Below, piece after piece: positions 16,482 through 56,895 of a stretch of DNA of 64,000 nt. The stretch lies in assembly GCA_032986305.1 (NCBI GenBank), contig GCA_032986305.1_3672.1; one strand, 5' to 3'. The first letter of the stretch is position 1. Each line of letters opens with the position of its first letter. This DNA is from a phage. The position numbers and the translations under genes were made by a program. The notes beneath the pieces were generated by a model. The model was not told the origin of the DNA. It worked only from the letters and a program-made list of their open reading frames with translations, and searched no databases.

Positions 16482-17531
16482 ATGAATTTAACACCTCGCA
16501 GCACCATGGTACACGGCATGAAAGAAAAACAGAACGGTTTCGAACCTATGAGTAATAAAATGTTTGGTATGCCGGGCGGTATCATGGAAACATACAGCTA
16601 CCCAACACCTGTTGTTGACCACGTTCTTTATATCGACGATTTGGAAGACCTACAGGATCATATGTCTCGTCTGCAGACGATCCGTATGGCTCAGCCGGAA
16701 GAAAGCATTCGGGTAATCATCAATAGCCCTGGGGGTTGCGTGCACATTGCAATGGCTTATCTGCAGGCATTCCGCGAGTCTCAGGCAAGCGTTGTTGCAC
16801 ATGCTGAAGGGATGTGCTGCTCTGCTGGAACAATCCTATGGCTGGGTTGCAAAGAACGCACCGTGGCTCCGGACACAGAGTTTATGTTCCACTACTATCA
16901 AGGCGGCACTTATGGTAACGGTGTGAACATGAATACTCAGGTCAGCTACTGGAAAAAACGTTTCGAACGCCTGATCGAAAAATACTACGGTGGGGTGCTT
17001 ACAGAAGATGAGATCGCATCCATCACAGCTGGTGGCGAAGTGTGGTTGGACGGAGAAGAGCTGGCAGCACGCACTGGAGCTATTATTCTGGATGAAGGCA
17101 ACATACAACGCATCCAGAACGGACAAAAACCGAAAAAGCTTCTGGCAAAAGGTGATGAAGAAGGCGTGTTAGGTGAAGCAGGTCTTCCGGAGATTCACCA
17201 GTGCACATCTTTAGATGAGTTAGTTCATGCTGTTGAATCTGCAAAAGCGGGTGGTTCGAAAGGTGATGTTCACACTGTGTTCCTGAATCTGCAGATGGAG
17301 AGTGGCGAGACCGTCAGAATTGCCCTGGGTGAGATTACTTCAGAAGATCTGCAGAGATTCTCTGTCGTTGAACTTCAGGATATTCTGTCTCAATTGAAGA
17401 CTACTCTGAACGGCGGTGAAGAGGTTAAGGTGAAAGATAAGACTCGCAAGCGTCTGGTGGACAATATTATTAAAACAGCAAAAGAGCTCAATGAAAAAAT
17501 CCTGGGTGCAGGAATTGTCGAAGAAGCTTAA
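16482..17531 (+). CDS. ClpP-family serine protease-like protein with C-terminal extension
   Basis: Motifs IINSPGGCV and GMCCSAGT resembling ClpP INSPGG and active-site serine region. Confidence 0.55.
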   Translation: MNLTPRSTMVHGMKEKQNGFEPMSNKMFGMPGGIMETYSYPTPVVDHVLYIDDLEDLQDHMSRLQTIRMAQPEESIRVIINSPGGCVHIAMAYLQAFRESQASVVAHAEGMCCSAGTILWLGCKERTVAPDTEFMFHYYQGGTYGNGVNMNTQVSYWKKRFERLIEKYYGGVLTEDEIASITAGGEVWLDGEELAARTGAIILDEGNIQRIQNGQKPKKLLAKGDEEGVLGEAGLPEIHQCTSLDELVHAVESAKAGGSKGDVHTVFLNLQMESGETVRIALGEITSEDLQRFSVVELQDILSQLKTTLNGGEEVKVKDKTRKRLVDNIIKTAKELNEKILGAGIVEEA

Positions 17532-17582: not shown

Positions 17583-18116
17583 ATGACTTGTGCTAGAAAA
17601 CCTGATGAACAACGTAACGCCTACGATGAGTATGTGACACCGGAGTGGTGTGCAGAAGGGCTGTATGACCTTATTCCGTTCCCAGAAGACTGGACCTACT
17701 TAGAGCCTTGCAGGAATAGTGCCTCAGGTGTGTTCTACTCCCGTATGCCGTTAGGATCTGCATGGGGAGAAATCCAAGAAGGTGTTGACTATCTGAATAC
17801 AGAATACAACCATGTTGACTGTATTATCACCAACCCACCATACAGCCTGGCTCGTGAGTTTGTAGACAAGGCGTTGAAAGATGCTGACGTAGTTATTATG
17901 CTTTTGCGTCTTAATTTTCTGGAAAGCAAAACCAGATTCGAATGGTGGCTTGATAATGCACCTACCACTGTGATCACAATATCTAAGCGCCCGTCATTCC
18001 AATCCAATGGTAGAACGGATGGGCAGGCATATGCATATTTTGTATGGGACAAGAAAAACCGTCTAGACTTGCCGCCATTTATGTGGTTGGCACCACCAGA
18101 GGCAGACTTGAAATGA
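17583..18116 (+). CDS. DNA N6-adenine methyltransferase (small, NPPY type)
   Basis: Catalytic motif CIITNPPYS. Confidence 0.55.
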   Translation: MTCARKPDEQRNAYDEYVTPEWCAEGLYDLIPFPEDWTYLEPCRNSASGVFYSRMPLGSAWGEIQEGVDYLNTEYNHVDCIITNPPYSLAREFVDKALKDADVVIMLLRLNFLESKTRFEWWLDNAPTTVITISKRPSFQSNGRTDGQAYAYFVWDKKNRLDLPPFMWLAPPEADLK

Positions 18117-19108: not shown

Positions 19109-19342
19109 ATGAAAGTTAAATTTCTTACAGATTTAGGGTACCCTTCCTTGGTTGACTGCATTGGTAAAATTGTGGAAGCAAAACGGCTATCTGCAAACGA
19201 TAATGTTGTCATGGTTAAGGGAAAAGATTTATTAGCTGCAGGTGCAGAGTCTGGCAGGATCTCTCCTGACTATACATATTACCTATCTTTAAGTAATCTA
19301 CCAGAACGAGGTGGCAAAGGCCTTGAAGTTGTGGAGGAGTGA
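19109..19342 (+). CDS. small protein, MKVK.../DLLAAGA paralog family
   Basis: SD GTAGGAGG; shares N-terminal MKVK and K.KDL(I/L)AAGA motif with ORFs 22783 and 22997. Confidence 0.45.
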   Translation: MKVKFLTDLGYPSLVDCIGKIVEAKRLSANDNVVMVKGKDLLAAGAESGRISPDYTYYLSLSNLPERGGKGLEVVEE

Positions 19343-19347
19343 CAGGT

Positions 19348-19872
19348 ATGCTTCTTATTAACTGGGAAGACCTCTATGGGGACAAAGACCCTGTTGCGTT
19401 TGTTGATCGTAGATGGAGATATACTGAAGAACAACTGGCTGCAAAAAATTTAACTGCGAAACGCAGAAAGATCATCCAGTGCAAGTATAAATACGCACAG
19501 TTTGCTGCAAAAGTGTCTCCACAAATCGAGAGCTTTGTGCTTAAATTGTATGACGAGTACCTCAAATTCAGATTGGATTTTGTACAGGTATACCGTACAC
19601 AGTTGCGCCCAGATACTAGCATTTGTAGATGGAAGGTTGTTTGTGACGGTAAAGATTTGCCGCTCAGCTTGACAATTGAGCAGCGTTGTGGGTATCATGA
19701 GTGCGGTCTGTATGAGACTTGGGATGTCATTGTAGATCCTGCTAAGTACCTGAACACGGAGGAGCTGGAATATATCAATAAGGTTATTCTAGATATGTTT
19801 TTCAGCTACACCTGTGAAAACTCCAAGAAAGAACGGGATACTTTTCTTGACACCATAAGCAACCATCTGTAG
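19348..19872 (+). CDS. hypothetical protein
   Basis: SD GGAGGAG before ATG 19348. Confidence 0.45.
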   Translation: MLLINWEDLYGDKDPVAFVDRRWRYTEEQLAAKNLTAKRRKIIQCKYKYAQFAAKVSPQIESFVLKLYDEYLKFRLDFVQVYRTQLRPDTSICRWKVVCDGKDLPLSLTIEQRCGYHECGLYETWDVIVDPAKYLNTEELEYINKVILDMFFSYTCENSKKERDTFLDTISNHL

Positions 19873-19902
19873 TATACAATTTAACCTACAAAGGGAGGGC
19901 TA

Positions 19903-20139
19903 ATGAGTATAAATGTTGTGTTAATAGGTTACCTGGTAATATCCGTTATAACAGCGGTATTCTTGACAGGTATATGCATCGTGTCCAGACGAAGGGTGAA
20001 GTTTGATGATTTTATCACCATCATCACTGCTGCACCTTTTTGGCCTGTTGTTATCTTCATAGTGATAATGTGTCTGGTTGATTACTACAAGAATATCCGT
20101 AAGGAGAAAAAGGAGAGTAGAGATGGATACCGCACCTAA
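19903..20139 (+). CDS. small membrane protein
   Basis: Hydrophobic N-terminal half; SD AAGGGAGGG. Confidence 0.4.
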   Translation: MSINVVLIGYLVISVITAVFLTGICIVSRRRVKFDDFITIITAAPFWPVVIFIVIMCLVDYYKNIRKEKKESRDGYRT

Positions 20140-20275
20140 AACTATCTATGCTGTTCTTAAAGAGATTGCGTTCTACGCAGATCTTAGCAAGGCACCTTTA
20201 TGGGAAAAGAGCATGTATTTAAAATGGTGCGTTAATTTAGGGAGACCTTCTAGTGTTTCAAGCCATGTTTATTGA
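20123..20275 (+). CDS. hypothetical small protein
   Basis: SD GAGAGTAGAG before ATG 20123. Confidence 0.25.
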   Translation: MDTAPKTIYAVLKEIAFYADLSKAPLWEKSMYLKWCVNLGRPSSVSSHVY

Positions 20276-20358
20276 GATGCTATCCGGGGTATTGTTACTG
20301 GTAGCCATCTTAGGTGGTGCAGTTCTGATGTATAACTATCTTGAAAAAGGAGACAGCA

Positions 20359-20544
20359 ATGGTAAAAAATAAATCTTTAGAGCAGGCTGAAAACCTTCTC
20401 CACGAGCTGGTAAAGGAGTGGAAAGTTGAATACTCAGATTTTAATGCACGAGAGGGTGAAGATTATTGGCCTACGGAGCGCTCAGAGGGAGAGTGGTATC
20501 AAGATTTTATAGAATGGCTATATCAGACGTGTGATGAGGGGTGA
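20359..20544 (+). CDS. hypothetical small protein
   Basis: SD AAAGGAGA before ATG 20359. Confidence 0.35.
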   Translation: MVKNKSLEQAENLLHELVKEWKVEYSDFNAREGEDYWPTERSEGEWYQDFIEWLYQTCDEG

Positions 20545-20546
20545 CG

Positions 20547-21002
20547 ATGTTTGTTAAATATGTAAAAACGTGCCTCAACAATCTTGGTAGAGAGCATTGG
20601 TACACCTTGCTTGAAAAAGGAGAAATTTTAACAAAATCTGGAAAGATAACTTTGATACCCTTGGACGATAAAGATCCGTCACTACTTATCATAGATGATT
20701 ACGTTACAGGTGTGTCGTACGAGGTCTCTGTGGAGAGGTTAATACGTAGATCTGGAGGTCCTTATGACCGAAGAGAGTATGTTTTCGATTCTGTTACAGA
20801 GAAGGAAGATCCGTCTCTAATGTTTAGGATGGTAATCAGGGATATGAAATCATCTATAAATAGGATCGTAAAGGACATTAAGGAGCCTTTTAGGGTAAAA
20901 GTTAAGAAGTTTTTTGATTCTAAGATTAACATACTTGCCGTTGTGCTAGGCGTAATTCAACTTCTGTTAATTTTGCACTATCTTGAACTGTTGTTTAAGT
21001 AG
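20547..21002 (+). CDS. hypothetical protein with C-terminal transmembrane segment
   Basis: SD GAGGGG before ATG; hydrophobic C-terminus. Confidence 0.4.
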   Translation: MFVKYVKTCLNNLGREHWYTLLEKGEILTKSGKITLIPLDDKDPSLLIIDDYVTGVSYEVSVERLIRRSGGPYDRREYVFDSVTEKEDPSLMFRMVIRDMKSSINRIVKDIKEPFRVKVKKFFDSKINILAVVLGVIQLLLILHYLELLFK

Positions 21003-21062
21003 CGTGCAATAAGGCACAAAGGATGTGCCATAATTAAATAGGTTAAGAAAGAGGTAGAGAGA

Positions 21063-21428
21063 ATGACAAATATTAAATCGATATTAAAATGGGTAGCTGC
21101 TATGGGGCTGGTAACCGTCGTGGCTTTTATAGGGTACTGGGTTTGGGAAACTGAATTAAAAGATATCGGATATACCAGTCTTGAGAGCAAGGCGTGTATT
21201 GGCATAACCGATGCATTCAGGCAAAATGCCATGGATCACGAATGTGTCGATGCAGATATAGATGAGAAACTGTCTAAGGACAAAGATTTTTACCATGGTC
21301 ATGCCTTGCTTGATAGTGGTGACACTGTAGAATTCTGGTCGTGGTTCCGTGAAGATGGAACAATAAAGACAGCAGTAAAGATTTCCAACAAAGAGTTAAT
21401 GCTGTTGCAGCAGAAGGAGGTGCAATGA
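21063..21428 (+). CDS. membrane-anchored protein
   Basis: N-terminal TM helix; SD AAGAGGTAGAGAG. Confidence 0.4.
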   Translation: MTNIKSILKWVAAMGLVTVVAFIGYWVWETELKDIGYTSLESKACIGITDAFRQNAMDHECVDADIDEKLSKDKDFYHGHALLDSGDTVEFWSWFREDGTIKTAVKISNKELMLLQQKEVQ

Positions 21429-21712
21429 TTTGGATATCCTACACTGATGGCACCATGCTGTATACTGCAGGTACTAGGTATGAAGTCCAGGAGGACGATA
21501 AAAAATTTATCGTAAAAACATTTGACAAGGACGACAACCTTTTGTTAGAATTGACTTACAAGGTTGGGGAGGTATCTAGCATCCAATTGGATTGCGGTCA
21601 TAAAGATAACCCGCTCAAGAAACCTGGGGTAGGTAAAGCTTCAGAAGAACGCCTGTCTCGTATTGCAGAAAGCGTTTCTGCACAAAAATCTAAGAAGGGG
21701 ACTAGAAAATGA
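21425..21712 (+). CDS. hypothetical protein
   Basis: SD GAAGGAGGTG; overlapping stop/start. Confidence 0.4.
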   Translation: MIWISYTDGTMLYTAGTRYEVQEDDKKFIVKTFDKDDNLLLELTYKVGEVSSIQLDCGHKDNPLKKPGVGKASEERLSRIAESVSAQKSKKGTRK

Positions 21713-21903
21713 AAAACTTACGTTTTAACACTTATTACTACAACACTTTGAATGATTTGTATTATATTATTCGAAGTAAAAGTCCTGAAACAGTCCTATT
21801 CTGCCGCGAACCTTTCAAAGGAGAGGAAGTAGAGTCTGAGATGAATGTTAGCCATATTACCTCTTTGTTGCTCTCAGGTGCAATGGAAGAAGCAATATTC
21901 TAA
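21709..21903 (+). CDS. hypothetical protein
   Basis: Overlapping stop/start coupling. Confidence 0.35.
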   Translation: MKNLRFNTYYYNTLNDLYYIIRSKSPETVLFCREPFKGEEVESEMNVSHITSLLLSGAMEEAIF

Positions 21904-21920
21904 ACCGGGCGGGAGGGTTT

Positions 21921-22106
21921 ATGAAGCACTATTGCCTGTTTGGTAGGATGGGTGTAGAGTGTGATTGGGTTTTCTTAAAACTTGTCAGCATCCGAGAGTC
22001 AATCCCAGAGGAAGAGCAAGAAAGTGAGCTGATGTCATGGATCAACTATTACGGCAACACTTTCCGGTATGTCAAAATGGAAGGGCTGCCAAGCGAGGAT
22101 GATTGA
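21921..22106 (+). CDS. hypothetical protein
   Basis: SD GGGAGGG before ATG. Confidence 0.35.
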   Translation: MKHYCLFGRMGVECDWVFLKLVSIRESIPEEEQESELMSWINYYGNTFRYVKMEGLPSEDD

Positions 22107-22108
22107 TT

Positions 22109-22198
22109 ATGATTGCATCAATATTAACGTTTATGGGTGGCGTGGCAGTCGGATTCATTATTTGCCTGTTTATAGTGATTATGTCTATGCGAGGCTGA
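22109..22198 (+). CDS. small hydrophobic peptide (29 aa)
   Basis: Single TM-like segment; below ORF-track threshold. Confidence 0.25.
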   Translation: MIASILTFMGGVAVGFIICLFIVIMSMRG

Positions 22199-22201
22199 CT
22201 T

Positions 22202-22486
22202 ATGAAACTGTTCGAGTGGTTTAAAAAGTTTAAATATCGGGCCGTTGCTGTATCGAAATGGACCGTCCGCTGGGTGGACAATGATGGAACACAAATTCCC
22301 GGTGATCAGGATACCGGATACTGGGTTATGATGGAGAACGGATTTGGGAAAAGGAAGTTTAAATGTGTTGGTGCTCCTACTCTTTTAAATGTTAGAAGTG
22401 TGCCAGGGTACAGCACTATGGTTGTTTGGGAGCTATCCGGTGTTCCTCCTGCCAATGTGCAATATCTGCCAAACCCAGAAAAATAA
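22202..22486 (+). CDS. hypothetical protein
   Basis: 94-aa ORF in operon. Confidence 0.4.
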   Translation: MKLFEWFKKFKYRAVAVSKWTVRWVDNDGTQIPGDQDTGYWVMMENGFGKRKFKCVGAPTLLNVRSVPGYSTMVVWELSGVPPANVQYLPNPEK

Positions 22487-22498
22487 AAGGAGAAGATA

Positions 22499-22783
22499 AT
22501 GAGCAATGGTGTTAGCAATAGTGCTGCAGAGTTTAAAGTGATCTGTGAAGGAACTTATTGGATAGTGAAACAGAAAGTGTACCTATTCGGTTTCATACCG
22601 TTTTGGCAGAGATTTTGCTGGGGAGCTAACGAGCTTAAAAGATACGCCACCAAGTCTATGGCACTTATTGGTATAGCTGAATACATTGCTGCCAGAGACA
22701 GAGAGGGGAAAACTTGTTACTACACTGCTGACGAGATTCGTAACAGTGTTTACGTTCCACAGCCGCCCGATGGAGACCGCTGA
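22499..22783 (+). CDS. hypothetical protein
   Basis: SD AAAGGAGAAG. Confidence 0.4.
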   Translation: MSNGVSNSAAEFKVICEGTYWIVKQKVYLFGFIPFWQRFCWGANELKRYATKSMALIGIAEYIAARDREGKTCYYTADEIRNSVYVPQPPDGDR

Positions 22784-23007
22784 TGAAAGTGAAAGTTTTA
22801 GATTCAAACTTCTATATTGGTCAAGAGCCTTTAGTTGGAAAAGTGTTTACCGCTATCCCTAACGAAGATTATCCTGACCTTTTAAAAATAAAAGGGGCAG
22901 ATCTTATTGCCGCTGGCGCGTCTCAGGAATGCTTTGACAGTCAGTGGGCCTACAACTTTGCCCTAGGGGAGGATGTGGAGATAGTGGAGGACGATTATGA
23001 AGGTTAA
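22783..23007 (+). CDS. small protein, MKVK.../DLIAAGA paralog family
   Basis: Paralogous to 19109 and 22997 ORFs. Confidence 0.45.
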   Translation: MKVKVLDSNFYIGQEPLVGKVFTAIPNEDYPDLLKIKGADLIAAGASQECFDSQWAYNFALGEDVEIVEDDYEG

Positions 23008-23251
23008 AATTCTTGACTCTAACGTCTACTTGGGACAATCATTCCTGAAGGGAAAGGTAGTACCTGCTGTATACTTCGAAGGGTTGCCGTGGGATGATCC
23101 TGTGCGGCAAAATCACAGCTATGTAGGCCACAATGTGGTGTTCATTTTGGGATCAGACCTGATCGCGGCTGGTGCTCCGGAATATTATTTCGGAGAGGAC
23201 TCGTATTATGCCTTTGGGGTAGGGTCAGATGCAGATATTTTAGAGCCGTGA
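22997..23251 (+). CDS. small protein, MKVK.../DLIAAGA paralog family
   Basis: Paralogous to 19109 and 22783 ORFs; SD GAGGA. Confidence 0.45.
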   Translation: MKVKILDSNVYLGQSFLKGKVVPAVYFEGLPWDDPVRQNHSYVGHNVVFILGSDLIAAGAPEYYFGEDSYYAFGVGSDADILEP

Positions 23252-23662
23252 TTGGGGACTGTTGTGAAAAATAAACTGTTCAAAGTTACAATGAAAATTC
23301 GCGGAGCTTGGAGCGTAAAGCAAGGGCGTATCCCAGAGTTTGAGAAAGACTTCTACGTAGTCTCCACCTCTAAAGAGGCTGCATGCTGGCAGGCTGGATA
23401 TGCCTATGCAAGAACCTGGTACGAAGGATACCAGACTGGAGGCTATGACGGAGAAATTGTCAGCAAGGGTGTGGAAGAAATTAATGTGTTGACAAGTGAA
23501 AAAGTTTTTGTTATAGTGCATCCTGATTCCAGAGTGAAGCATTACTGGAATGCCAGAACAAAAACTTGGACACCGTTTGCAGATTCTGCTACACCACTTT
23601 TAAACCAAAAAGCTCTTGACTCTGCCCCGAGCTATGGGGTTGTTGAAGAAAAGCTAGACTGA
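23252..23662 (+). CDS. hypothetical protein (paralog of 25472..25867; start uncertain)
   Basis: Shares HP.S...YW...TK.WTP region with ORF 25472. Confidence 0.45.
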   Translation: MGTVVKNKLFKVTMKIRGAWSVKQGRIPEFEKDFYVVSTSKEAACWQAGYAYARTWYEGYQTGGYDGEIVSKGVEEINVLTSEKVFVIVHPDSRVKHYWNARTKTWTPFADSATPLLNQKALDSAPSYGVVEEKLD

Positions 23663-23679
23663 AACAGTGAGGTGCCACT

Positions 23680-23970
23680 ATGATGGATTTAGTTCTGAAT
23701 ATTGATAACGCAGGAGAGGTTAAAGACGATGGTGTAACAAGCATGGACCAACCATGCCCTGCCAAGATTGACTCAAAATGGACATATAAGTTTGACGGAG
23801 AGATCTTTGCAAATGATGAAAAGGTTGTAGATGCTGCAGCCATTTTGAACGCTCTAGGGTACGACCCTGTGAATTCTTTGATCAAGGATCCTGTTGAGTT
23901 TGCAGAGTATGTTCGAAAAATGGCAGATCTTGCTGTAGATATTTTAGATACTATCGACAACAATCTGTAA
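23680..23970 (+). CDS. hypothetical acidic protein
   Basis: SD GTGAGGTG. Confidence 0.4.
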   Translation: MMDLVLNIDNAGEVKDDGVTSMDQPCPAKIDSKWTYKFDGEIFANDEKVVDAAAILNALGYDPVNSLIKDPVEFAEYVRKMADLAVDILDTIDNNL

Positions 23971-23976
23971 AAACTG

Positions 23977-24005
23977 TTGACACAACGCTTCAGCTATAGT
24001 ATTAT
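23977..24005 (+). promoter_or_regulatory. sigma70-type promoter TTGACA-17-TATTAT followed by 5' UTR hairpin (24015-24033)
   Basis: Consensus -35; stem AGAGGG/CCCTCT before SD AAAGGAG. Confidence 0.5.
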
Positions 24006-24052
24006 TGTTTTCAAAGAGGGTTTGGTTCCCTCTTCTTTAAAAGGAGCACGTT

Positions 24053-24370
24053 ATGCAAATTGAAATCACTGGCAACGTAGAAATCACTGAAGGCATGGTG
24101 TCTTTCATTTCCCACAAAATGTCAAAACTGGAGCGTCTACATCCTTCTGTAAATCATGCACGTGTAAGTGTAAAAGTTGAAAATGACCACCAGGAAGTTA
24201 TGGCGTTCATTTTTGACAATTCTGGAAAAGAAGTTATTGCCAAAGCTAAAGGTAGTGATGCTTACGAGGCAACTGACCGTATGGTAGATGTTGCAGCACG
24301 TCAGCTGGCTAAGTGCGGTGGAAAGAAAGGTAAGGGGAAAGGCAAAGTAAAGATTGACTTTGGAGAATGA
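24053..24370 (+). CDS. hypothetical protein
   Basis: SD AAAGGAG; lysine/glycine-rich C-terminus. Confidence 0.45.
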   Translation: MQIEITGNVEITEGMVSFISHKMSKLERLHPSVNHARVSVKVENDHQEVMAFIFDNSGKEVIAKAKGSDAYEATDRMVDVAARQLAKCGGKKGKGKGKVKIDFGE

Positions 24371-24379
24371 GGTGCTATA

Positions 24380-24481
24380 ATGGGAGTGATTAAGAAATTA
24401 GTCCCAAATGTAGAGATTGCATGCTTTGAAATTATGTTTGCAATCGCAGTTGTAGTTAATGTGTTAGGTTACGGCTATTAA
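24380..24481 (+). CDS. small hydrophobic peptide (33 aa)
   Basis: SD GAGGTG; below track threshold. Confidence 0.25.
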   Translation: MGVIKKLVPNVEIACFEIMFAIAVVVNVLGYGY

Positions 24482-24507
24482 TATCAAATAATTGAGGAGA
24501 CCTCTAA

Positions 24508-24777
24508 ATGAAAATTAAATTATTCAAAACTGAGCTGGCAGACAAAAACTGTGGACTGGTTGAAGGCATGATTGTTGAAGCACAACCAGTGGACTATATG
24601 AAGGTGGTTCGTGATGCACTGGGTGAAGGCTTTGATCTGATGGAGCCAGCTCTGCGAGAAGATGTTATCGAGATGGCTAAAAAGCACACACCTGAAGGCT
24701 TGGTGGTGTTTGTTGCACCAGGTAACGGAGAAGAGTTGATTGTAACTCCTGATGTGTATGAGATTGTAGAAGGGTAA
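24508..24777 (+). CDS. small acidic protein
   Basis: SD GAGGAGA. Confidence 0.4.
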   Translation: MKIKLFKTELADKNCGLVEGMIVEAQPVDYMKVVRDALGEGFDLMEPALREDVIEMAKKHTPEGLVVFVAPGNGEELIVTPDVYEIVEG

Positions 24778-24871
24778 TCCTGCTTGGATTAGCATACTCC
24801 CTCAATAAAAAGAAAAGTTTGTAATTATTTGTGGGAAAGGAATCCCCATCTCTTGCCAGAGGTGATACTAT

Positions 24872-25135
24872 ATGATTGTTTATTTTAAAACTTCAGGTGG
24901 ATACCCTGATTCTCAAAGCTTGATCGGAAAAACGTGCACAGCATACTCACCTCTTGATGAGGAGGTAAGCGATATCCTACGAGATATGTATCGGATTGAT
25001 CCCCAAGAAGCTTTTGATCAAAACCTTGTATTTGTCAAGGGCTCAGACATGAAGTCTTTGGGAGCATTTCCTGAAGCAGATGATGATGCCGTTTATTCGT
25101 TCATGACCCCTTTTGAAGCTATGGTTGTTGGGTGA
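24872..25135 (+). CDS. small acidic protein (second copy of duplicated three-gene module)
   Basis: SD GAGGTG; resembles 22783/22997 family (VKGSD...GA). Confidence 0.4.
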   Translation: MIVYFKTSGGYPDSQSLIGKTCTAYSPLDEEVSDILRDMYRIDPQEAFDQNLVFVKGSDMKSLGAFPEADDDAVYSFMTPFEAMVVG

Positions 25136-25139
25136 GAAT

Positions 25140-25472
25140 ATGAAAGTACGATTTATTGGTGAAACAATTCCTGTGCATCTCCGGTCTCCTGAAGATTCTG
25201 CAGATCTTGCATCTCAGAAGGCGAGAGGTTATGATAAGAAAGTAATCTCAACCGATGTAGAACTTGAGGCTACTAGTTTACCTGACCCTGCTGCATTCTT
25301 TAATCATTATGGATACTATTTCAGCAATCTTATGAATATCGGTGAGCTTGTGTTTATTAGTGGTGGAGAAATTGTTAGCAAGCTTGGCGGCGATCCGGAT
25401 ATCTTTCATGAAACCTGTCCTTTTGCATTTGTGGTGGGTTCAGATGTGGAAGTTATTGAGGAGGTGCGGTAA
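25140..25472 (+). CDS. small acidic protein
   Basis: SD GGGTGAG before ATG 25140. Confidence 0.4.
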   Translation: MKVRFIGETIPVHLRSPEDSADLASQKARGYDKKVISTDVELEATSLPDPAAFFNHYGYYFSNLMNIGELVFISGGEIVSKLGGDPDIFHETCPFAFVVGSDVEVIEEVR

Positions 25473-25867
25473 TGGTAAGCCTATACCGTGTTGAGTATAG
25501 CTCAGATACTGTATACAACGTAAGAAGCAAAGATCGCAGCGACAGAGTGCAAGAAATGTATGTTCTTGCCGACAGTCCGTTATCTGCAGCGTTCAAGGCA
25601 GGGGCTCTTGCATCTCGTTGGAAATTTGAAGGCGGATCTTTCTATGAAGAAACCCTTGAAGATTCTGTTGTTATTTCTTCTGTAGAGGTTTCAGATGACT
25701 ACGAAGGGAAAAAGTTCGTAATGCGGCACCCACACAGCAACATTGCGTACTACTGGGATGTTCTGAACAACGAGTGGACCCCAGATCTTCAGAAGGCTAC
25801 TGTGCTAACACCGTTTTTGGCAGATAAGTTTCCACCAGAAGGTAATTTATCCGCACTGTTTCAGTAA
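25472..25867 (+). CDS. hypothetical protein (paralog of 23252..23662)
   Basis: Shared HP.S...YW...EWTP motif; SD GAGGAGGTG. Confidence 0.45.
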   Translation: MVSLYRVEYSSDTVYNVRSKDRSDRVQEMYVLADSPLSAAFKAGALASRWKFEGGSFYEETLEDSVVISSVEVSDDYEGKKFVMRHPHSNIAYYWDVLNNEWTPDLQKATVLTPFLADKFPPEGNLSALFQ

Positions 25868-25946
25868 TTTTCTTGCACACAGGTGTTGACAACGCCAACC
25901 CTGTGTGAAATAATACCTTCATCTTAACAAGACAGGAGACCGATTG

Positions 25947-26204
25947 ATGAAGATTAAATTGAAAAACCTTGAAACGGCAGAGATTCAGGACGGTGTGGAT
26001 TTCCGTTCTAAAGATGGTGACATCTTAGAGGTAAATATTCCAACCTACGAGCTGATCAAAGGTTTTGGCAACGTCCCCGAGGAAGGTATCGCAGACGTTC
26101 TTCTAATGTTAATCGTTAGTGGGACAGTGTTCTTGGGGGAAGGTGAGAACGCTATTGCAATCCCAAGCCATTTTTATGAAGTAGTTGACGAAGAGGTGCT
26201 GTAA
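25947..26204 (+). CDS. small acidic protein
   Basis: Promoter-like TTGACA at 25891 upstream; SD GGAGA. Confidence 0.4.
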   Translation: MKIKLKNLETAEIQDGVDFRSKDGDILEVNIPTYELIKGFGNVPEEGIADVLLMLIVSGTVFLGEGENAIAIPSHFYEVVDEEVL

Positions 26205-26555
26205 ATGAAAGTAGAAATTACTGGTTTTGATGTGAATGTGGTTCCGGAAGATATTTTAGCTAAACTCCCGGAAGGTTTTGGTAACGGTGTTGTGGTGGAT
26301 GCTGTTCCTCCTACCAAAGACATTCTGCTGCAGTATGGTGTAGCAGAGGAAGATGTTGATAAAGTTCTTACAATGATGGCAATCGATCGTGTTGTCGTTG
26401 TTAAGGGTCTCGATAATTTTGAGAGTGATCCCCTGATTATTCGTGGAGATGACTACAAAGTCATCGATAATGAAGGCCAAGAGTTCTATGAGCCTTGTGC
26501 AGAAGATATTCTTAACTTATTACTGGAAGCAGGCACCGAAGAGGAGGACGAATAA
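26205..26555 (+). CDS. small acidic protein
   Basis: Tight packing, SD GAGG. Confidence 0.4.
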   Translation: MKVEITGFDVNVVPEDILAKLPEGFGNGVVVDAVPPTKDILLQYGVAEEDVDKVLTMMAIDRVVVVKGLDNFESDPLIIRGDDYKVIDNEGQEFYEPCAEDILNLLLEAGTEEEDE

Positions 26556-26884
26556 TGAAGATTGACCAGTTACTGAAGGCTCGTGCAGAAAAAGCTTACA
26601 CCATTAAGCTTACCAACCTGGTCCCTACTTGTCATCCGGATGTAGGTTGGCCCGAAGGTTTGGTGGAGGGAACTGTAACAGCTGCATACCTTCCTAACAT
26701 CAAATACCTCATGGAGATCTTAGAGATGGATGAGGAAACTGCAGAACAGTTCCAGTTGGATATGAAACAGAGTGGGACTCTGGTTATTCACGGGTGGTAT
26801 AATACTAAAGATGCAGAAGACCCTCTGGTAACTTCTAATCTGGCATATGAAATCTTAGGGCCTTTGAACCTGGAGGAAGACTAA
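26555..26884 (+). CDS. small acidic protein
   Basis: SD GAGGAGG. Confidence 0.4.
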   Translation: MKIDQLLKARAEKAYTIKLTNLVPTCHPDVGWPEGLVEGTVTAAYLPNIKYLMEILEMDEETAEQFQLDMKQSGTLVIHGWYNTKDAEDPLVTSNLAYEILGPLNLEED

Positions 26885-27171
26885 TGAAAGATCTGGTTAA
26901 GATTAAGATTAAAGATACCAATGGGGAGCTCAGCCATTTTGGAATTAATGATGGTGACGAGCTGATCGCACACCTGCCTACCAAGGAGGTTGTAAGCAAA
27001 GCAGTTGCCGGAGAAGAAGCTGCAATGCAGGCTGCAGGTGTGGATGAAAACTATGTAGCTATGTGCATGTGCCGAGATCAGGTTGTTCTGTATAAAGCGT
27101 ATCGACCAAGCGGAGCCACGGAGTGGCTTGTATTCCGACCCGAAGGGTATGAAATCTTAGAGGCACTATGA
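26884..27171 (+). CDS. hypothetical protein
   Basis: SD GGAGGAAG. Confidence 0.4.
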   Translation: MKDLVKIKIKDTNGELSHFGINDGDELIAHLPTKEVVSKAVAGEEAAMQAAGVDENYVAMCMCRDQVVLYKAYRPSGATEWLVFRPEGYEILEAL

Positions 27172-27260
27172 TAAATCTTGCCAAGGTTGCAACGGCACTG
27201 CTAATTATTTGCTGGTCAGTAACCTTAACACTGTGTCTTGTATTTCAGTGAGGTGCTTGT

Positions 27261-27524
27261 ATGAACATCCTGATGTGGGTTATAGCAGTGGCGTTTGTTG
27301 CATGTTTTTGCTGCTGGGTTGCGGTGAGGATTTCTGTAGCTACCCTTCGGAAGTTAGGGTTCTCAGAATGGGATATTAATATCCTTTCTTTTCGCAATGA
27401 GACAATATCAGCCGCCCTGCTTTGTAAGAAATTCAAGTGGGAACCTTGTGAGGTCATGAACTATCTAAGAACTGGAGATATCCCTGAAAGATTTAAAAAA
27501 GTTCTTGACGGTAAGGATAAATGA
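27261..27524 (+). CDS. membrane-anchored small protein
   Basis: N-terminal TM helix; SD GAGGTG. Confidence 0.4.
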   Translation: MNILMWVIAVAFVACFCCWVAVRISVATLRKLGFSEWDINILSFRNETISAALLCKKFKWEPCEVMNYLRTGDIPERFKKVLDGKDK

Positions 27525-27552
27525 TAGTATAGTGACTAACAAGAGGTGAGGA

Positions 27553-27693
27553 ATGACAGATTTTACTGAAGCTTTAATGATGGCCTTGTCTGTTTTAGCG
27601 CTATCGGTGTGTTTTGGGGCGTTATTCACATCTCTGGTTAAAGTTTTACATACAGTATTATTACCCAAGGAGCGCAGTAATGACGAAGATTGA
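27553..27693 (+). CDS. small hydrophobic peptide (46 aa)
   Basis: SD AGAGGTGAGG; below track threshold. Confidence 0.3.
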   Translation: MTDFTEALMMALSVLALSVCFGALFTSLVKVLHTVLLPKERSNDED

Positions 27694-27931
27694 CTTGAAT
27701 GCTGGCGACCATGTTGTTGTCAAATGCATCGGAGATTATCTTGGATTCACAATCGGCAATACTTACGAGGCGGTAGTGGCGAAGGTTTATCATGATAAAG
27801 TCCTCAGTCTTGTATTTGACTGCGATGATGATGGGGATGACCGATACGTTTGTGAGGTGCTGGCACGAGACGATAGTGAAGACCAGAAATTCCTGGTTAT
27901 TGAACTGAACGGTATTTTTGTAGAACGTTAA
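27680..27931 (+). CDS. hypothetical protein
   Basis: ATG 27680 within operon; acidic. Confidence 0.4.
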   Translation: MTKIDLNAGDHVVVKCIGDYLGFTIGNTYEAVVAKVYHDKVLSLVFDCDDDGDDRYVCEVLARDDSEDQKFLVIELNGIFVER

Positions 27932-27959
27932 TTTAAAACAACATAAGGAGACTCTTACT

Positions 27960-28265
27960 ATGGCTAAATCTAAAGTTGAACTGTTCACCTCTCTTCCTTC
28001 TGACACTGCAGAGCGTGATCGCCTTCGCAAGACAATCGAAGAACTGGTTGAACTCCAACTTCAGATTAAAGATCTGAAAGATGCCATTAAGGATATCATT
28101 CTCGTTGAGAAGCAGGATCATCTGTATTCTCCTAAATTCATCAAATCTCTGGTGGCTACCGAGTTCGATATTCGCTATGAGGCTGAAAAACGTCGAGCTA
28201 AAATCGAAGAAGAGGTTGAGCACATGTCTGAGGCAGACATTCTGTTCAAACGCTCTGTAGAATAA
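27960..28265 (+). CDS. hypothetical protein
   Basis: SD AAGGAGA. Confidence 0.45.
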   Translation: MAKSKVELFTSLPSDTAERDRLRKTIEELVELQLQIKDLKDAIKDIILVEKQDHLYSPKFIKSLVATEFDIRYEAEKRRAKIEEEVEHMSEADILFKRSVE

Positions 28266-28271
28266 TGACAA

Positions 28272-28298
28272 AGAGGGGCTTTGACCCCTCTTTTTACT
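28272..28298 (+). terminator. rho-independent terminator
   Basis: AGAGGGG-ctttga-CCCCTCT followed by TTTTTACT. Confidence 0.6.
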
Positions 28299-28318
28299 AT
28301 CTATGAAGGAGATTTGAG

Positions 28319-28645
28319 ATGGGTATACCGGTCACTGTAAAAGAATTGAATGAACGTGATGCAGGTGGTCTATGGCCTGCACGAAAAATACGCTGCGTCT
28401 ACATGAAAGAGAACCTTGAACATCTTGATCAACAGATCAAGGTCGGTGATATTTTCGAGGTCTTCTATTCCAATCGTCGCAACTGGGAAACCATTCAGCC
28501 TTCTGGTTTTGTTCTTGCCAAACTTGACACTGGAGAAGTGATTATTCCAGGGTTGGATATTGTCTTCGAAATTATCCAGGAGTGGGATCCGGATAAGATT
28601 AGATACGAAGAGTTATTCGGTAAAGGTATTATCAAACCTGTGTGA
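28319..28645 (+). CDS. hypothetical protein
   Basis: SD GAAGGAGA. Confidence 0.45.
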   Translation: MGIPVTVKELNERDAGGLWPARKIRCVYMKENLEHLDQQIKVGDIFEVFYSNRRNWETIQPSGFVLAKLDTGEVIIPGLDIVFEIIQEWDPDKIRYEELFGKGIIKPV

Positions 28646-28653
28646 GGTGGATT

Positions 28654-28953
28654 ATGTCTACAAAGGCGGCTAAATACTCTTACATGCCATCAACCTCTGC
28701 AGAGGTAGACTTTAGTTTTGATGTGTTTCCACTGTTCGAGGTGGTTCTGGCATACCCAACAATACTATCTACCCCTGAATCACTTGTGCCTGTTAAGTTG
28801 CAGAACGCTATGCATTCTATGCATTACAACAATAAATGTAGGCACAGATGGTGTCAGGACGAGGAAAAGGATCTGGACAGTTTGAGAGATTTTGACAATC
28901 ACCTTTTGACACCTTTCAGCTACTCCAACCTTGATAAGCCCTCATGGATATAG
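28654..28953 (+). CDS. hypothetical protein
   Basis: SD GAGGTGG before ATG 28654. Confidence 0.4.
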   Translation: MSTKAAKYSYMPSTSAEVDFSFDVFPLFEVVLAYPTILSTPESLVPVKLQNAMHSMHYNNKCRHRWCQDEEKDLDSLRDFDNHLLTPFSYSNLDKPSWI

Positions 28954-28978
28954 CAAAATATCAAATTTAAGACACCTA

Positions 28979-29009
28979 GGACGCTCTGTGGCGTCCTTTT
29001 CTTTATTTA
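28979..29009 (+). terminator. rho-independent terminator
   Basis: AGGACGC-tctgtg-GCGTCCT followed by TTTTCTTTATTT. Confidence 0.6.
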
Positions 29010-29165
29010 GTGCACGATTGCATACCTTGGACAGATAATCTCATTACAGAGCGTTTAAGAGCTTCCTGCAAACAACTCCATATTTCGAGCGTAGCGAGAA
29101 CGCACGTCCGTTTTGACCAAAATCACCATACGCTCGGATTTTAACCAAACCCTCGCGGCGTTTAT

Positions 29166-29194
29166 GTTGACACATTACCGCTCTCGTGATAGTA
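29166..29194 (+). promoter_or_regulatory. sigma70-type promoter TTGACA-17-TAGTAT
   Basis: Consensus -35 with 17-bp spacer. Confidence 0.45.
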
Positions 29195-29227
29195 TCCACA
29201 CATAGTTTGTAGAATATGGAATACACA

Positions 29228-29320
29228 ATGAAAACATTGTCCGAAGTTTTGGTAGTGATCCTGATGATCATTACGTCCATAGCAGCTGTTGCCGGAATAC
29301 TCACGGGTGGAACATGATCA
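29228..29320 (+). CDS. small hydrophobic peptide (30 aa)
   Basis: Downstream of promoter; TM-like sequence. Confidence 0.3.
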
Positions 29321-29526
29321 ACACACATGTATCTGAAGAGACATCCAAAGGGGTGACCATCTGTCACTTGGCTGAGCCAGTGCAAGAGGAAAACTTCGAT
29401 TCTGAAGATTCTCCATCTTCGCTACAGGTAGATCCTGAGGCTGATGACCTGACGTGGGAGGACATCGTAGATATCTGGTTCTCTATTATGCCTGAGCACG
29501 AAGAGTTCAGGGGTGGTAGACTATGA
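29314..29526 (+). CDS. small acidic protein
   Basis: ATGA overlap with preceding peptide. Confidence 0.35.
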   Translation: MINTHVSEETSKGVTICHLAEPVQEENFDSEDSPSSLQVDPEADDLTWEDIVDIWFSIMPEHEEFRGGRL

Positions 29527-29565
29527 AGCACCGAGCCCACACAGGTTCCTCATGCTAAAGCATGG

Positions 29566-30754
29566 CCTGAAGAGGCAAACGTGCATAATTCCTGTGCATT
29601 GGAACGTATGAAACCCTGTTCACACTCTCATTTCCAGAGGAGATTTCATGAAGATAGAAATATTTGGTGGAGCTGACAACACTCGTGGCCTGATTTACCT
29701 TGAATTCGATGAATCATACCTGCCAGAGGTGTTAAATATAAACTCTGTTGCTGAGGCTTTGGGAGTAAACCCTAAAGAACTCCACTCTTGTGCTGAGATC
29801 GATGGTTGGGAAGAGACCATGAACATTGATTTCAGTGAAGTAGAGGATGAACCGCTGGACTGACACACAATTAGCTGCCCGGCTAAAGTGCTGGAAGCAC
29901 CTATAACACATCTTTCAACTAAATTTCCCACCACCACAATCACTTACCTCCCACACATGACTGTTTGCTTGTTTAGTGAGCAGTCATGCCTTGACATTCT
30001 TGCCTATCCTGATAAAATTAAGTTCTTCTCTTTTCTTTTACCGAGTAATTCGGGTTTTCTGTTCTCTTCGGTTTGAAGAGGTATGGAGATACACCTGAGT
30101 GAACAGGGTGAACAACCGAACCATTGGCTATGGCATTAGCATGGCGAAGCGGACGGGTGACGAAAGAGGGGCCGGAGGACACCAGTCACTGCCATATGAT
30201 ATACGGGTGATAACCTGAAGAGTCTGAATAAGTGTTTAAGTACCAGTCAGAGGAAAAGGTGAATGGTAGCCGAAGGGGGAGGGGGGTTTCTTGTATCTTT
30301 AATTTGTATATTATGTATACACTTGTAAACCAATCTCATCTGAATCTGTTTACTACACAAAGCTGATAGGGACAAATATTACCTATTAAACTTGAATTAT
30401 TTATAGAAAATACCACAACACAACTTAAGTCTTTGATTTTACACACAAATCCTGCAGATATTCACCCTCCATATTTAACATACTTGTAACATATTCCATA
30501 CTCTACCTACCTGATCAATTTACCCACCAACATCCTCCATATTTTCCCTGTCTGTACCACCCCTGCCCCGCCGGGAGTCCCGTCATATCTGGCTTTCCAG
30601 CAAATATCACACCCACAAATATCATTGCCTGAAGAGGATTTCATCTCATAATACATGCCTTGCCTGAAGAGCGCTTCATACACCACGTAAATTTTTTAAT
30701 TGACCCCCTCCCCGCCGCCGGAGAGGTTGGCTTTTCCCACACAGACCTGAAGAG
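29566..30754. repeat. five dispersed copies of 9-mer CCTGAAGAG
   Basis: Exact copies at 29566, 30214, 30628, 30663, 30746 within non-coding DNA. Confidence 0.6.
29648..29863 (+). CDS. small acidic protein
   Basis: SD GAGGAGA; last plus-strand gene before noncoding region. Confidence 0.4.
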   Translation: MKIEIFGGADNTRGLIYLEFDESYLPEVLNINSVAEALGVNPKELHSCAEIDGWEETMNIDFSEVEDEPLD

Positions 30755-31279
30755 TCAGCCAGAAATATCTGAATGGACCCAATTCTGCCCTGTTATGAGC
30801 CGTAGCTACTGGAGTGCTGCCAGGCGGACGAAATGGGAATACTTCTCATTCTTATAACAATTCTCAAATATCAAGGCAGTGAGTCAAATTAATAGGCGAG
30901 GCCGTTCACACAGTGGCACAACATTTGCAACCTATCTTGTGGGGGTGAATGAGAATACCTATCATTGTGAGAATAGTTATCATTACGGGCAATTTAACAT
31001 AATACCCATTATGCGCACCACTGGCGATACATACAGGGATTGATAACATGAGTTACTGTTTACGCATATAACAATTATATTTCTTACTATTTGTGTGGGA
31101 TATAGTTAGCAGCCAATAGATTAGATATTGACCTGTAGACTTCCAACCGTCTAGACGTCTAAACGCCCACACAGCAAGGGTTATACATACACTTCTGAAT
31201 GTAAACAGGGCCGCAAAAATGCTACCATACCAGTTTGTAAATTTTTCATGCAGCACTTGACAAAGAGGAGAAAAACTTG

Positions 31280-31440
31280 TCTGACACTTTAGACACAATA
31301 GTGACATACTATGACACCTTTGACACTTTTGCATACCTGATTGTTTGCATGTCTAATAGTTTACATGGATAACTGTTCACATACTTATCATTTACATGAT
31401 TGACTGTTTACACAAATATGATAAGCCATGACATTCGTTT
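31280..31440. repeat. iteron-like direct repeat arrays (TGACAC(T)TT x3; GTTTRCAY x7 at about 16-bp period)
   Basis: Read directly: tttgcat, gtttgcat, gtttacat, gttcacat, atttacat, gtttacac, gtttgcat in series. Confidence 0.55.
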
Positions 31441-31500
31441 GCATGAAAACAATTAACAAGATAACAATTGACAAGCTAACAGCCAACAAGCTGACAATTA
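31441..31500. repeat. four tandem 15-bp repeats (consensus NTAACAATTRACAAG)
   Basis: aaaacaattaacaag / ataacaattgacaag / ctaacagccaacaag / ctgacaattaacagg. Confidence 0.55.
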
Positions 31501-31517
31501 ACAGGTTAATAATATAT

Positions 31518-31687
31518 GACATAATATAAAAGCAGGGCAACTATTAGCAGATCTATAGTTGCCTTGCTTGTTATGTCATGATTAACTAAATACAAGGCAA
31601 CTATGATCTGATTAATAGTTTGCAGACAAACTATCACGGGGGTGATTGTTACTGCTTTTATATTATGTCGCGACTCCGTCGCGACAT
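31518..31687. repeat. nested inverted repeats (18-bp IR GACATAATATAAAAGCAG, inner palindromes, GTCGCGAC x2)
   Basis: 18-bp perfect inverted repeat at 31518-31535 and 31654-31671; GGCAACTAT-n-ATAGTTGCC; ATAGTTTG-caga-CAAACTAT. Confidence 0.55.
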
Positions 31688-32307
31688 GTCATTCGTTTGC
31701 ATAGTTGCCTTATTGTTACGGATAAAATAATTGTATTGTTAATTATTTCTTATCTTTCTCTTAGTCATCTAATGATTCCAGTCAGTATAGTAATGTACAG
31801 TAAACATTAGACGACTAAATATTTCTCTGATTATAGTAACCTATCGTGACAATTTCGGACTGTTTACGAAAAATGTTGACACCTGGGCAGGTTTATGTTA
31901 TGCAGTTTGTACGAATAATTATTTTATACAGGTATTGACTATTCCGTTATTCTGTGGTTGGAATAAATACTTTGCAGGCTATAGAATGATGTTCGTACGT
32001 GAATTCTGAGATCTGTCGGCTATAGTTACACCCGATTTTTCACGTAGGACACGCTTTTTGGTTTGTGTAAGTGTATGACTTATAAGGGTTTTTAATTGTT
32101 GACAGTATGCTGAAAATGTGCATCAGGTTAAATTTTGTGCAATAGCTGCATTACGTGCGTTTTTGGAAGGAAAAACGTGTAAAAATGACCCTGCTACCAC
32201 AAGATGAAAGATTATGCAATAGTTATTTTATATGTATATTTGTACAGTGTGCGGGATTAATGGCTCGTCAATTATTCCACTTGCCAGGTAGGGCCGTTTA
32301 TGGTAGG

Positions 32308-50601: not shown

Positions 50602-50868
50602 TAGTTCAGGTAGGTCGTTAAGCTACCCCGCACCATTACGTGCATAGCCATACGTTTTCACGTAGGATCGGACCATCTCATATTCCTATGATAAGCAACC
50701 ACAGGAATCCTCCCATTTCGACCGCACTTGCTGGTCTACTTCCTTTCGGAATGGCCTCTGAGCGTTCGCTCTTTTGAGCGCTTCGTTGCGGATTACCTTG
50801 CCATAAGGTTTAGGCTTCCCGCAGTTAAAGAGGTTATTCGACATAGATTACTCTATGAAGCCACAATG

Positions 50869-56850: not shown

Positions 56851-56861
56851 TTTGCTGTCTC

Positions 56862-56895
56862 CTAATGCAAAAAGCCCCACCCTTTCGGGCAGGGC
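56862..56895 (-). terminator. rho-independent terminator (second copy of 22-bp hairpin)
   Basis: Identical GCCCCACCCTTTCGGGCAGGGC to 45803-45824. Confidence 0.55.

Follow-up and report, generated by a model that had tools for sequence, protein, structure and literature searches.

Twelve small proteins in three paralogous families, with a repeated three-gene module, in a vequintavirus gene array

A gene array with three families of small proteins

We analysed a 64-kb stretch of phage DNA (contig GCA_032986305.1_3672.1 of GenBank assembly GCA_032986305.1; hereafter the window) and an array of small genes that lies in it between about 17.5 and 29.9 kb. Across the 11-kb region studied here, nucleotide identity to over 110 genomes of Vequintavirus (rV5-like) coliphages, such as BP9 and EmilHeitz (Bas49), is 94–95 per cent, and on sequence grounds we assign the window to a Vequintavirus, an rV5-like myovirus of E. 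coli. Nearly all genes of the region are labelled ‘hypothetical protein’ in the related records. The array holds about thirty-six small genes on the plus strand, most of them preceded by a GGAG-type ribosome-binding site, and neighbouring genes overlap at their start and stop codons or are separated by a few bases, which suggests translational coupling. The GC skew and the coding strand both change near 30 kb.

Twelve of these roughly thirty-six genes belong to three families of paralogues, called A (five genes), B (two), and C (five) below. An earlier reading of the DNA letters (the original prediction) had proposed an expanded family of small acidic proteins here, and the expansion proved larger than was claimed. 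The proteins are small and single-domain, eleven of the twelve with an isoelectric point (pI) of 4.1–5.4. The members, named in the text by their start positions, are listed here with their equivalents among the gene products (gp) of phage rV5 and the results of searches with hidden Markov models (HMMs), HHalign, and PHROGs; modules 1 and 2 are the two copies of a repeated gene trio.

19109..19342, + strand: family A, 77 aa, rV5 gp127 equivalent by order and length; phrog_5009 E = 6e-36, independent HMM E = 1.5e-17
22783..23007, + strand: family A, 74 aa, module 1 gene 1, gp140 equivalent; independent HMM E = 5e-23
22997..23251, + strand: family A, 84 aa, module 1 gene 2, gp141 equivalent, with an insertion between strands 2 and 3; HMM E = 1e-16
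23264..23662, + strand: family B, 132 aa from GTG 23264, module 1 gene 3, gp142 equivalent; phrog_7379 E = 3e-73
24508..24777, + strand: family C, 89 aa, gp146 equivalent, directly 5' of module 2; leave-one-out HMM E = 5e-4, HHalign to 26884 62% over 85 columns
24872..25135, + strand: family A, 87 aa, module 2 gene 1, gp147 equivalent, whose strands 2 and 3 are separated by a helical insertion; HMM E = 1.4e-7
25140..25472, + strand: family A, 110 aa, module 2 gene 2, gp148 equivalent, whose N-terminal half has large insertions ahead of strand 3; HMM E = 1e-6
25472..25867, + strand: family B, 131 aa, module 2 gene 3, gp149 equivalent; phrog_7379 E = 2e-66
25947..26204, + strand: family C, 85 aa, gp150 equivalent; leave-one-out HMM E = 0.027, HHalign to 26205 87.7% over 83 columns
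26205..26555, + strand: family C, 116 aa, net charge -21, gp151 equivalent; the member chosen for the structure model
26555..26884, + strand: family C, 109 aa, gp152 equivalent; HHalign to 26205 85.5% over 82 columns
26884..27171, + strand: family C, 95 aa, which appears to be annotated as two pieces, gp153 and gp154, in rV5; leave-one-out HMM E = 9e-5, HHalign to 24508 62%

Membership of family A was established by several searches. In an all-vs-all BLASTP comparison of thirty-eight open reading frames (ORFs), the strongest pair was 22783/22997 (E = 6.5e-15), followed by 19109/22783 (E = 1.9e-6), with weaker links from 22997 and 19109 to 24872 and 25113. The last of these is the frame of 25140 read from an upstream start; its orthologues are annotated at 110 aa, and ATG 25140 should replace the start at 25113. 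Eighty-three family A clusters at E ≤ 1e-3 came out of a profile search run exhaustively against 1.84 billion representative proteins, and fifty-five of their representatives, none from a vequintavirus, were used to build an independent HMM. Since it derives from non-vequintavirus relatives only, this model tests 24872 and 25140 without circularity. Scanned against 660 six-frame ORFs of the window, it scored exactly five (22783, 19109, 22997, 24872, and 25113/25140), and the next best reached only E = 0.48. PHROGs places 19109, 22783, and 22997 in phrog_5009 end to end (E < 1e-32); 24872 matches that family weakly (1.2e-4) and is assigned to phrog_13920, and 25140 falls in phrog_13661. By HHalign, 24872 aligns to 19109 at 85 per cent and to 22997 at 81 per cent.

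Family A has a conserved motif after strand 3. The original prediction had noted a MKVK start and a K.KDL(I/L)AAGA motif in 19109, 22783, and 22997; the start and the element G-x-D-L-[IL]-A-A-G-A are indeed present in all three, and the literal ‘K.KDL’ occurs only in 19109. The motif is canonical in these genes (VKGKDLLAAGA, IKGADLIAAGA, and ILGSDLIAAGA, respectively) and, measured against the pattern G-x-[DE]-L-[IL]-x-x-G-[AG], degenerate in 24872 (GSDMKSLGA) and 25140 (GGEIVSKLGG). 19109 is of a prophage-like subtype, carrying the C-terminal insertion ...ERGGKGLEVVEE. The two module 1 genes 22783 and 22997 overlap by 11 nt.

The two B proteins are 28 per cent identical (BLASTP E = 3e-8; HHalign 96.9%) and share the motif that was originally reported, which reads HPDSRVKHYWNARTKTWTP in 23252 and HPHSNIAYYWDVLNNEWTP in 25472. 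The first B gene most likely starts at GTG 23264 and not at the TTG 23252 of the original prediction (136 aa), as a GGGGA lies 6–10 nt 5' of the GTG and rV5 and FV3 both annotate 132 aa. The start of 25472 overlaps the stop of 25140 by 1 nt.

The members of family C begin with a MKIK-type strand 1 and a strand 2 of the form (D/E)G-x-I-x-x-A-x-x-P(T), followed by a stretch of helix that surrounds a conserved EE, then a G-x-V-V strand, and a C-terminal Y-(E/K)-(I/V)-(V/I/L) strand. When each member was left out of the HMM in turn, it was always the top non-training match of the 660 ORFs (E = 5e-4, 0.027, 1.7e-6, 0.018, and 9e-5), with the next non-member at 0.25 or worse, a result somewhat inflated by the choice of the five members by eye before the test. 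For 25947, ATG 25947 should replace the start at 25944. PHROGs spreads the five C genes over five separate families. Family C also accounts for part of the neighbouring ORFs that the original prediction had singled out for a MK(V/I)(K/E) start and an acidic tail; 18671 and 29648 share the start and have no significant relation to the families. Profile searches likewise gave no significant similarity to A, B, or C for 18671, 23680, 27680, 28319, or 29648. To the eye, 27680–27931 and 28319–28645 look beta-rich and could be small barrels.

Taken over all profiles, with the orthologues of a divergent relative (L010, below) added, the twelve best of 300 HHalign pairs all fell within A, B, or C. All twelve genes are conserved across the genus, and all show more synonymous than nonsynonymous codon differences from five other vequintaviruses: 48 vs 20 for 19109, 58 vs 10 for 23264, 59 vs 8 for 24508, 79 vs 13 for 25140, 75 vs 7 for 25472, and 111 vs 18 for 26555. 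Judged by these counts, the whole set is under purifying selection.

Known domain families gave little. No Pfam match was found for the A members at E ≤ 1, nor any NCBIfam or PADLOC match above threshold for members of A, B, or C. The B members and 24508 also lacked Pfam matches at E ≤ 1 (S30AE included for 24508), as did 25947, 26205, 26555, and 26884 at E ≤ 0.1, bar a below-cutoff LRAT match for 26884. Sequence searches of the A, B, and C profiles against solved structures (PDB) revealed no relative; a single match for family A was to a designed protein and was discarded as spurious.

The repeated module and its history

The original prediction held that the gene order at 22783–23662 is mirrored at 24872–25867 by an ancient segmental duplication. 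The repeat and its age stand, with both copies in the same orientation and so not mirrored. As the independent HMM puts 24872 and 25140 in family A, both modules read A-A-B. If five A and two B genes are placed at random among about thirty-six genes, a rough calculation gives a probability of the order of 1e-4 that two A genes precede each of the B genes; the null is naive, because tandem duplicates arise adjacent. The best cross-module HHalign pairs are 22997/25140 (92.7%) and the two B genes. Identity between the diverged copies is 25–36 per cent. At the nucleotide level, module 1 and module 2 have no direct repeat and share only matches of 16–33 nt of the ribosome-binding-site/ATGAAG type, so the duplication must be ancient.

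The copy is not a clean one. 22783 is most closely related to 22997 and the reverse also holds (49% identity), which leaves positions 2 (22997/25140) and 3 (B/B) as the only ones where duplication in register is clear. One account would require a later tandem duplication or gene conversion in module 1; in the other, the duplicated unit was A-B and its A gene then doubled in each copy. A neighbour-joining tree of family A leaves the order of duplications among the four module genes unsettled. The ancient event copied an A-B unit at the least, and probably all of A-A-B.

Further evidence of age comes from L010, a divergent metagenomic contig of 128 kb in synteny with the window, at a protein identity of 27–86 per cent. 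Families A and C are complete in it, with an orthologue for each of their five genes, and of family B it has the second gene, all at 27–75 per cent identity. The L010 B protein is closer to 25472 (40% identity) than to 23252, the first B gene (27%), which implies that the B duplication predates the split and that L010 lost the first copy. In that slot (L010 8692–8982) lies a 96-aa ORF with no BLASTP match among the thirty-eight array ORFs tested, and this is a gene replacement at a conserved position.

The families differ in how far they reach. In tblastn searches of 50,697 phage records, B and C matched vequintavirus-like genomes only, a limit that for B also held in a word-indexed search of a set of 5.8 billion protein clusters. 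A word-indexed protein search with 22783 returned close relatives only. By the sequence evidence, family A is widespread but patchy. It is found between a Q-type antiterminator and the lysis genes in the cultured phage mEp515 and in lambdoid prophages of E. coli; as a tandem pair beside a helix-turn-helix regulator gene on a contig that also codes for an SU10-type major capsid protein; as two copies, set apart from each other and close to replication genes, on a 42.5-kb contig; and in phages of Proteus, Vibrio, Morganella, and Pantoea. Some single polypeptides carry two or three A domains (A-A, A-A-A). In other proteins the domain is fused to DUF3310, itself of unknown function (P0072), or to Cys-rich tails (P0073, P0113, P0114), partners that offered no functional lead.

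Two other origins for the similarities were weighed against ancient duplication. One is that related accessory genes were acquired repeatedly from other phages and prophages instead of being duplicated in place. The patchiness of family A over unrelated phages would fit, and so would 19109, which joins the lambdoid-prophage clade in the neighbour-joining tree (78% bootstrap), is 49 per cent identical to the E. coli prophage protein P0030, and shares with that clade a C-terminal ...RGGKGLEVVE insertion. Horizontal exchange, and not local duplication, may be the source of this one gene. As a general account the idea seems unlikely to us, since the searches matched B and C only in vequintavirus-like genomes, leaving no visible outside donor, and since tandem or segmental duplication would be expected to yield a repeated A-A-B order and a run of four adjacent C genes. 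The other is that short acidic ORFs with an MK start, a start favoured for translation, resemble each other by chance or composition. MK starts are found in fourteen of the thirty-six array genes, and 18671 and 29648 share the start without detectable homology. Against this, the E values of the independent HMM lie between 5e-23 and 1e-6 and none of the 660 ORFs was a false positive, the best profile pairs were all within families, and the orthologues are conserved with an excess of synonymous change. The all-vs-all alignments and HMM clustering that the original prediction had called for thus gave significant pairwise similarity and within-family recovery; BLASTP, the independent and leave-one-out HMMs, and HHalign together refute chance similarity for A, B, and C, and we give it almost no credence.

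Elsewhere in the window, on the minus strand, 56089–56880 encodes a 263-aa protein that is 56 per cent identical to an E. coli lambdoid prophage protein (L002 2709–3503), and the adjoining HNH endonuclease homologue (55425–56096) is likewise shared with lambdoid prophages. Together, the 263-aa protein and the 19109/P0030 pair point to gene traffic between vequintaviruses and lambdoid prophages.

Promoters and neighbouring genes

The rV5 genome paper places the block at the end of a transcription unit, ‘genes 82–163’, that also contains nucleotide-metabolism genes, and predicts the sigma70-type promoters P144, P150, P156, and P162 within it (PMC3606486). Our promoter scan of the window found sites at 23977, 25886, 27505, and 29167, which are those predicted in rV5. 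Their presence makes expression of the block by the host RNA polymerase plausible; a literature search found no vequintavirus transcriptome. Two of these sites and two further genes of the array are listed here.

23680..23970, + strand: very acidic 96-aa protein, net charge -12, pI 4.1, between module 1 and the HPF gene; matches phrog_12029 only
23977..24005, + strand: sigma70-type promoter-like site, TTGACA-17-TATTAT, 11/12 consensus matches, 5' of the HPF gene; rV5 P144 (PMC3606486 suppl. 4)
24053..24370, + strand: ribosome hibernation factor homologue (S30AE/HPF family), between the two modules; Pfam PF02482 at 50.3 bits (cut-off 23.7), E = 4e-13
25886..25914, + strand: sigma70-type promoter-like site, TTGACA-17-AATAAT with a TG extension, 11/12 consensus matches, 5' of the run of four C genes; rV5 P150

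The 23680 protein had no significant HHalign partner and lies outside families A, B, and C. Several GenBank records call the orthologues of the C gene 24508 a second ‘sigma 54 modulation factor’ (MK883718 ECP32DNA_00138, PQ505080 XLV54034); orthologues are also present at L009 7828–8097 and L007 7829–8098. From the sequence comparisons, the label looks like an error propagated from the adjoining true HPF gene.

At the upstream end of the array, 19109 is flanked by genes for a Dam-type N6-adenine methyltransferase (17583–18116) and a ‘putative glycosidase’ (19339–19872). In the related phage Bas51, the GATC methyltransferase triggers the retrons Asa1 and Squ1, and a stop mutation in the glycosidase also ends Asa1 defence (PMC12548924). 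The window ‘glycosidase’ has no significant Pfam match. Further upstream, 16482–17531 (plus strand) is by synteny a candidate for the ClpP-like protease gene of related records. A 2026 preprint titled ‘Phage protease enzymes activate CBASS antiphage immunity’ reportedly mentions Bas48 and Bas51.

Downstream, an ORF-poor stretch of about 2.4 kb (~29900–32300) marks the switch in coding strand and GC skew. Similarly, the rV5 paper reports ‘no observable ORFs’ at rV5 104013–106618 (PMC3606486). No Rfam family was found in it at threshold; an origin or regulatory RNAs are possible roles. Outside the array, a group I catalytic intron was identified at 50649–50884 on the minus strand (Rfam RF00028, E = 4e-14, 64.7 bits where the gathering score is 50), and the rV5 genome paper describes a large terminase gene split into three segments, one with a homing endonuclease. 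Finally, eighteen records named ‘Campylobacter phage’ (MG065635–MG065690), most with Campylobacter jejuni given as host, match this E. coli vequintavirus region; those listed (H2, H3, H14–H22) are 93.6–94.9 per cent identical to it. These host labels look doubtful and may reflect contamination or mislabelling.

Predicted folds, proposed functions, and significance

Structure prediction, another step the original prediction had called for, gave SH3-like barrels for both A and C. The model of family A, whose members have ~75–110 aa, is a five-stranded barrel with a model confidence score (pLDDT) of 91, in which the conserved G-x-D-L-I-A-A-G-A forms a helix and loop after strand 3. The C model, of 26205, was built from the five window C paralogues alone and reached a pLDDT of 78, with the order b1-b2-[two helices]-b3-b4-b5 and a C-terminal helix. 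On these models both families are predicted to be single-domain SH3-like barrels. No member of A, B, or C matched an SH3 or KOW family in Pfam.

The nearest known fold class is that of the SH3-like small beta-barrels, which includes SH3 itself, the KOW domains of NusG, Spt5, and L24, PsaE, and the C-terminal domain of retroviral integrase. The A and C models match the same SH3-like chains, sharing twenty-seven of their top sixty. The two-helix insert of C sits in the strand 2–3 loop, where 22997 and 24872 also carry their insertions and 25140 some of its additional sequence. Merged A and C profiles aligned in HHalign at 15–60 per cent probability, mostly over the first ~28 columns, compared with 5.4 per cent or less for controls. 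A common origin of A and C is likely but unproven. Foldseek matched the A model to uncharacterized phage proteins of 60–90 aa in BFVD (template modelling score 0.64–0.87, probability 1.00; ranks 1–15, 17, and 18), for example from Shigella phage CM1, Cronobacter phage CS01, Citrobacter phage Merlin, and Escherichia phage RB49. None of them has an assigned function, and most lie below sequence-level detectability to family A.

Overall, the best explanation of the array is that it holds twelve ancient paralogues in three families, all under purifying selection, that most likely serve as stoichiometric binders, and we hold it with moderate confidence. The A, B, and C proteins lack a catalytic signature. 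The proposed binding role follows from this, from the absence of Pfam matches, and from acidic surfaces and an adaptor-type fold. The proteins would most likely act stoichiometrically by binding macromolecules, whether host or defence proteins or phage partners, and the paralogues would supply differing binding specificities. Family A may work as a dimer or pair, as suggested by the A-A pairs and fusions that recur in unrelated phages, and its GxDLIAAGA element would be the obvious candidate interface.

A role in anti-defence or host takeover, as the original prediction had envisaged, is plausible by analogy. It would fit the sigma70-type promoters, the small acidic non-enzymatic domains, and the patchy spread of family A, and it has a precedent in TifA (Orf65) of Enterococcus phage phi47, which directly binds and inhibits type IV restriction enzymes (PMC11322646). 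Like the proteins described here, TifA is small and highly acidic, and its N-terminal domain resembles SH3 (PMC11322646). Unlike A and C, it has two domains, and the likeness is functional only, an analogy and not homology. With forty diverse A members and the C proteins as queries, tblastn matched no Enterococcus phage record. The EVADES paper, a catalogue of anti-defence proteins, contains no SH3, KOW, or beta-barrel term.

Several observations weigh against this interpretation or against other parts of the account. The array is strongly conserved in about 120 genomes, with 90–99 per cent amino-acid identity for most proteins, unlike fast-evolving anti-defence islands. The lambdoid A homologue lies in the late Q-to-lysis region, which argues against a strictly early role. 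For the duplication itself, the A tree gives no resolved pairing of 22783 with 24872, so position 1 remains ambiguous. A and C may share their fold by convergence, as their profile similarity is limited to about twenty-eight columns. Lastly, the rV5 equivalent of the C gene 26555, gp152, is flagged as a ‘structural protein (MS evidence)’ (PMC3606486 suppl. 3), and has thus been seen by mass spectrometry.

This flag raises the possibility that some of the proteins are virion-associated cargo, packaged or ejected with the DNA, rather than made early. The internal proteins of T4 are packaged or ejected with DNA in this way. Only one of the twelve family members has been detected, the main text of the rV5 paper does not mention gp152, abundant non-structural proteins often contaminate virion preparations, and the genes lie far from the structural module behind sigma70-type promoters; we consider virion cargo quite improbable. 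In a different proposal, the proteins would mimic KOW domains, as in NusG/Spt5 and ribosomal protein L24, and modulate transcription or translation, acting with the HPF homologue to reprogram host ribosomes or RNA polymerase. This idea draws on generic fold matches, and we consider KOW mimicry rather unlikely. In the rV5 list, gp133 and gp137 carry the same mass-spectrometry label as gp152, with gp133 among the predominant virion proteins (PMC3606486). By order and length, the three equivalents in the window are 20541–21002, 21921–22106, and 26555–26884, unexpected in a block of small, non-structural-looking genes.

A bolder extension of the binder proposal would unite A and C in one undescribed superfamily of phage SH3-like mini-binders, with at least ten copies in vequintaviruses and a spread, often in the form of tandem pairs or fusions, over many unrelated phages and prophages. 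Its members would work in pairs, with B as a lineage-specific partner, and neutralize several host factors or defences. We think it doubtful that this holds in full. If true, the superfamily would form a modular ‘binder array’ like the multigene families of large eukaryotic viruses.

Part of the grouping was available before. PHROGs already groups the core of family A (phrog_5009) and both B genes (phrog_7379), each under ‘unknown function’, and lacks the five-member A family, family C, the repeated module, and any fold or function. The rV5 genome paper makes no mention of paralogues or duplication, and our literature search found no other description of the families. New here are family C as a whole, the placing of 24872 and 25140 in family A, the SH3-like predictions, and the broader range of A. 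Small accessory proteins with paralogues are a familiar kind of result for large phages, and we regard this one as solid but modestly novel.

Vequintaviruses are common therapeutic and model coliphages (Bas48–Bas59 of the BASEL collection), and some 40 per cent of their genes are small ORFs of unknown function. Resolving a third of the block into three families, two of them with the same predicted adaptor-type fold, leaves fewer independent unknowns. Any function found for A would transfer widely, since the family, for which neither Pfam nor NCBIfam has a model, recurs on several unrelated phage contigs and, at the Q-to-lysis accessory locus, in lambdoid prophages.

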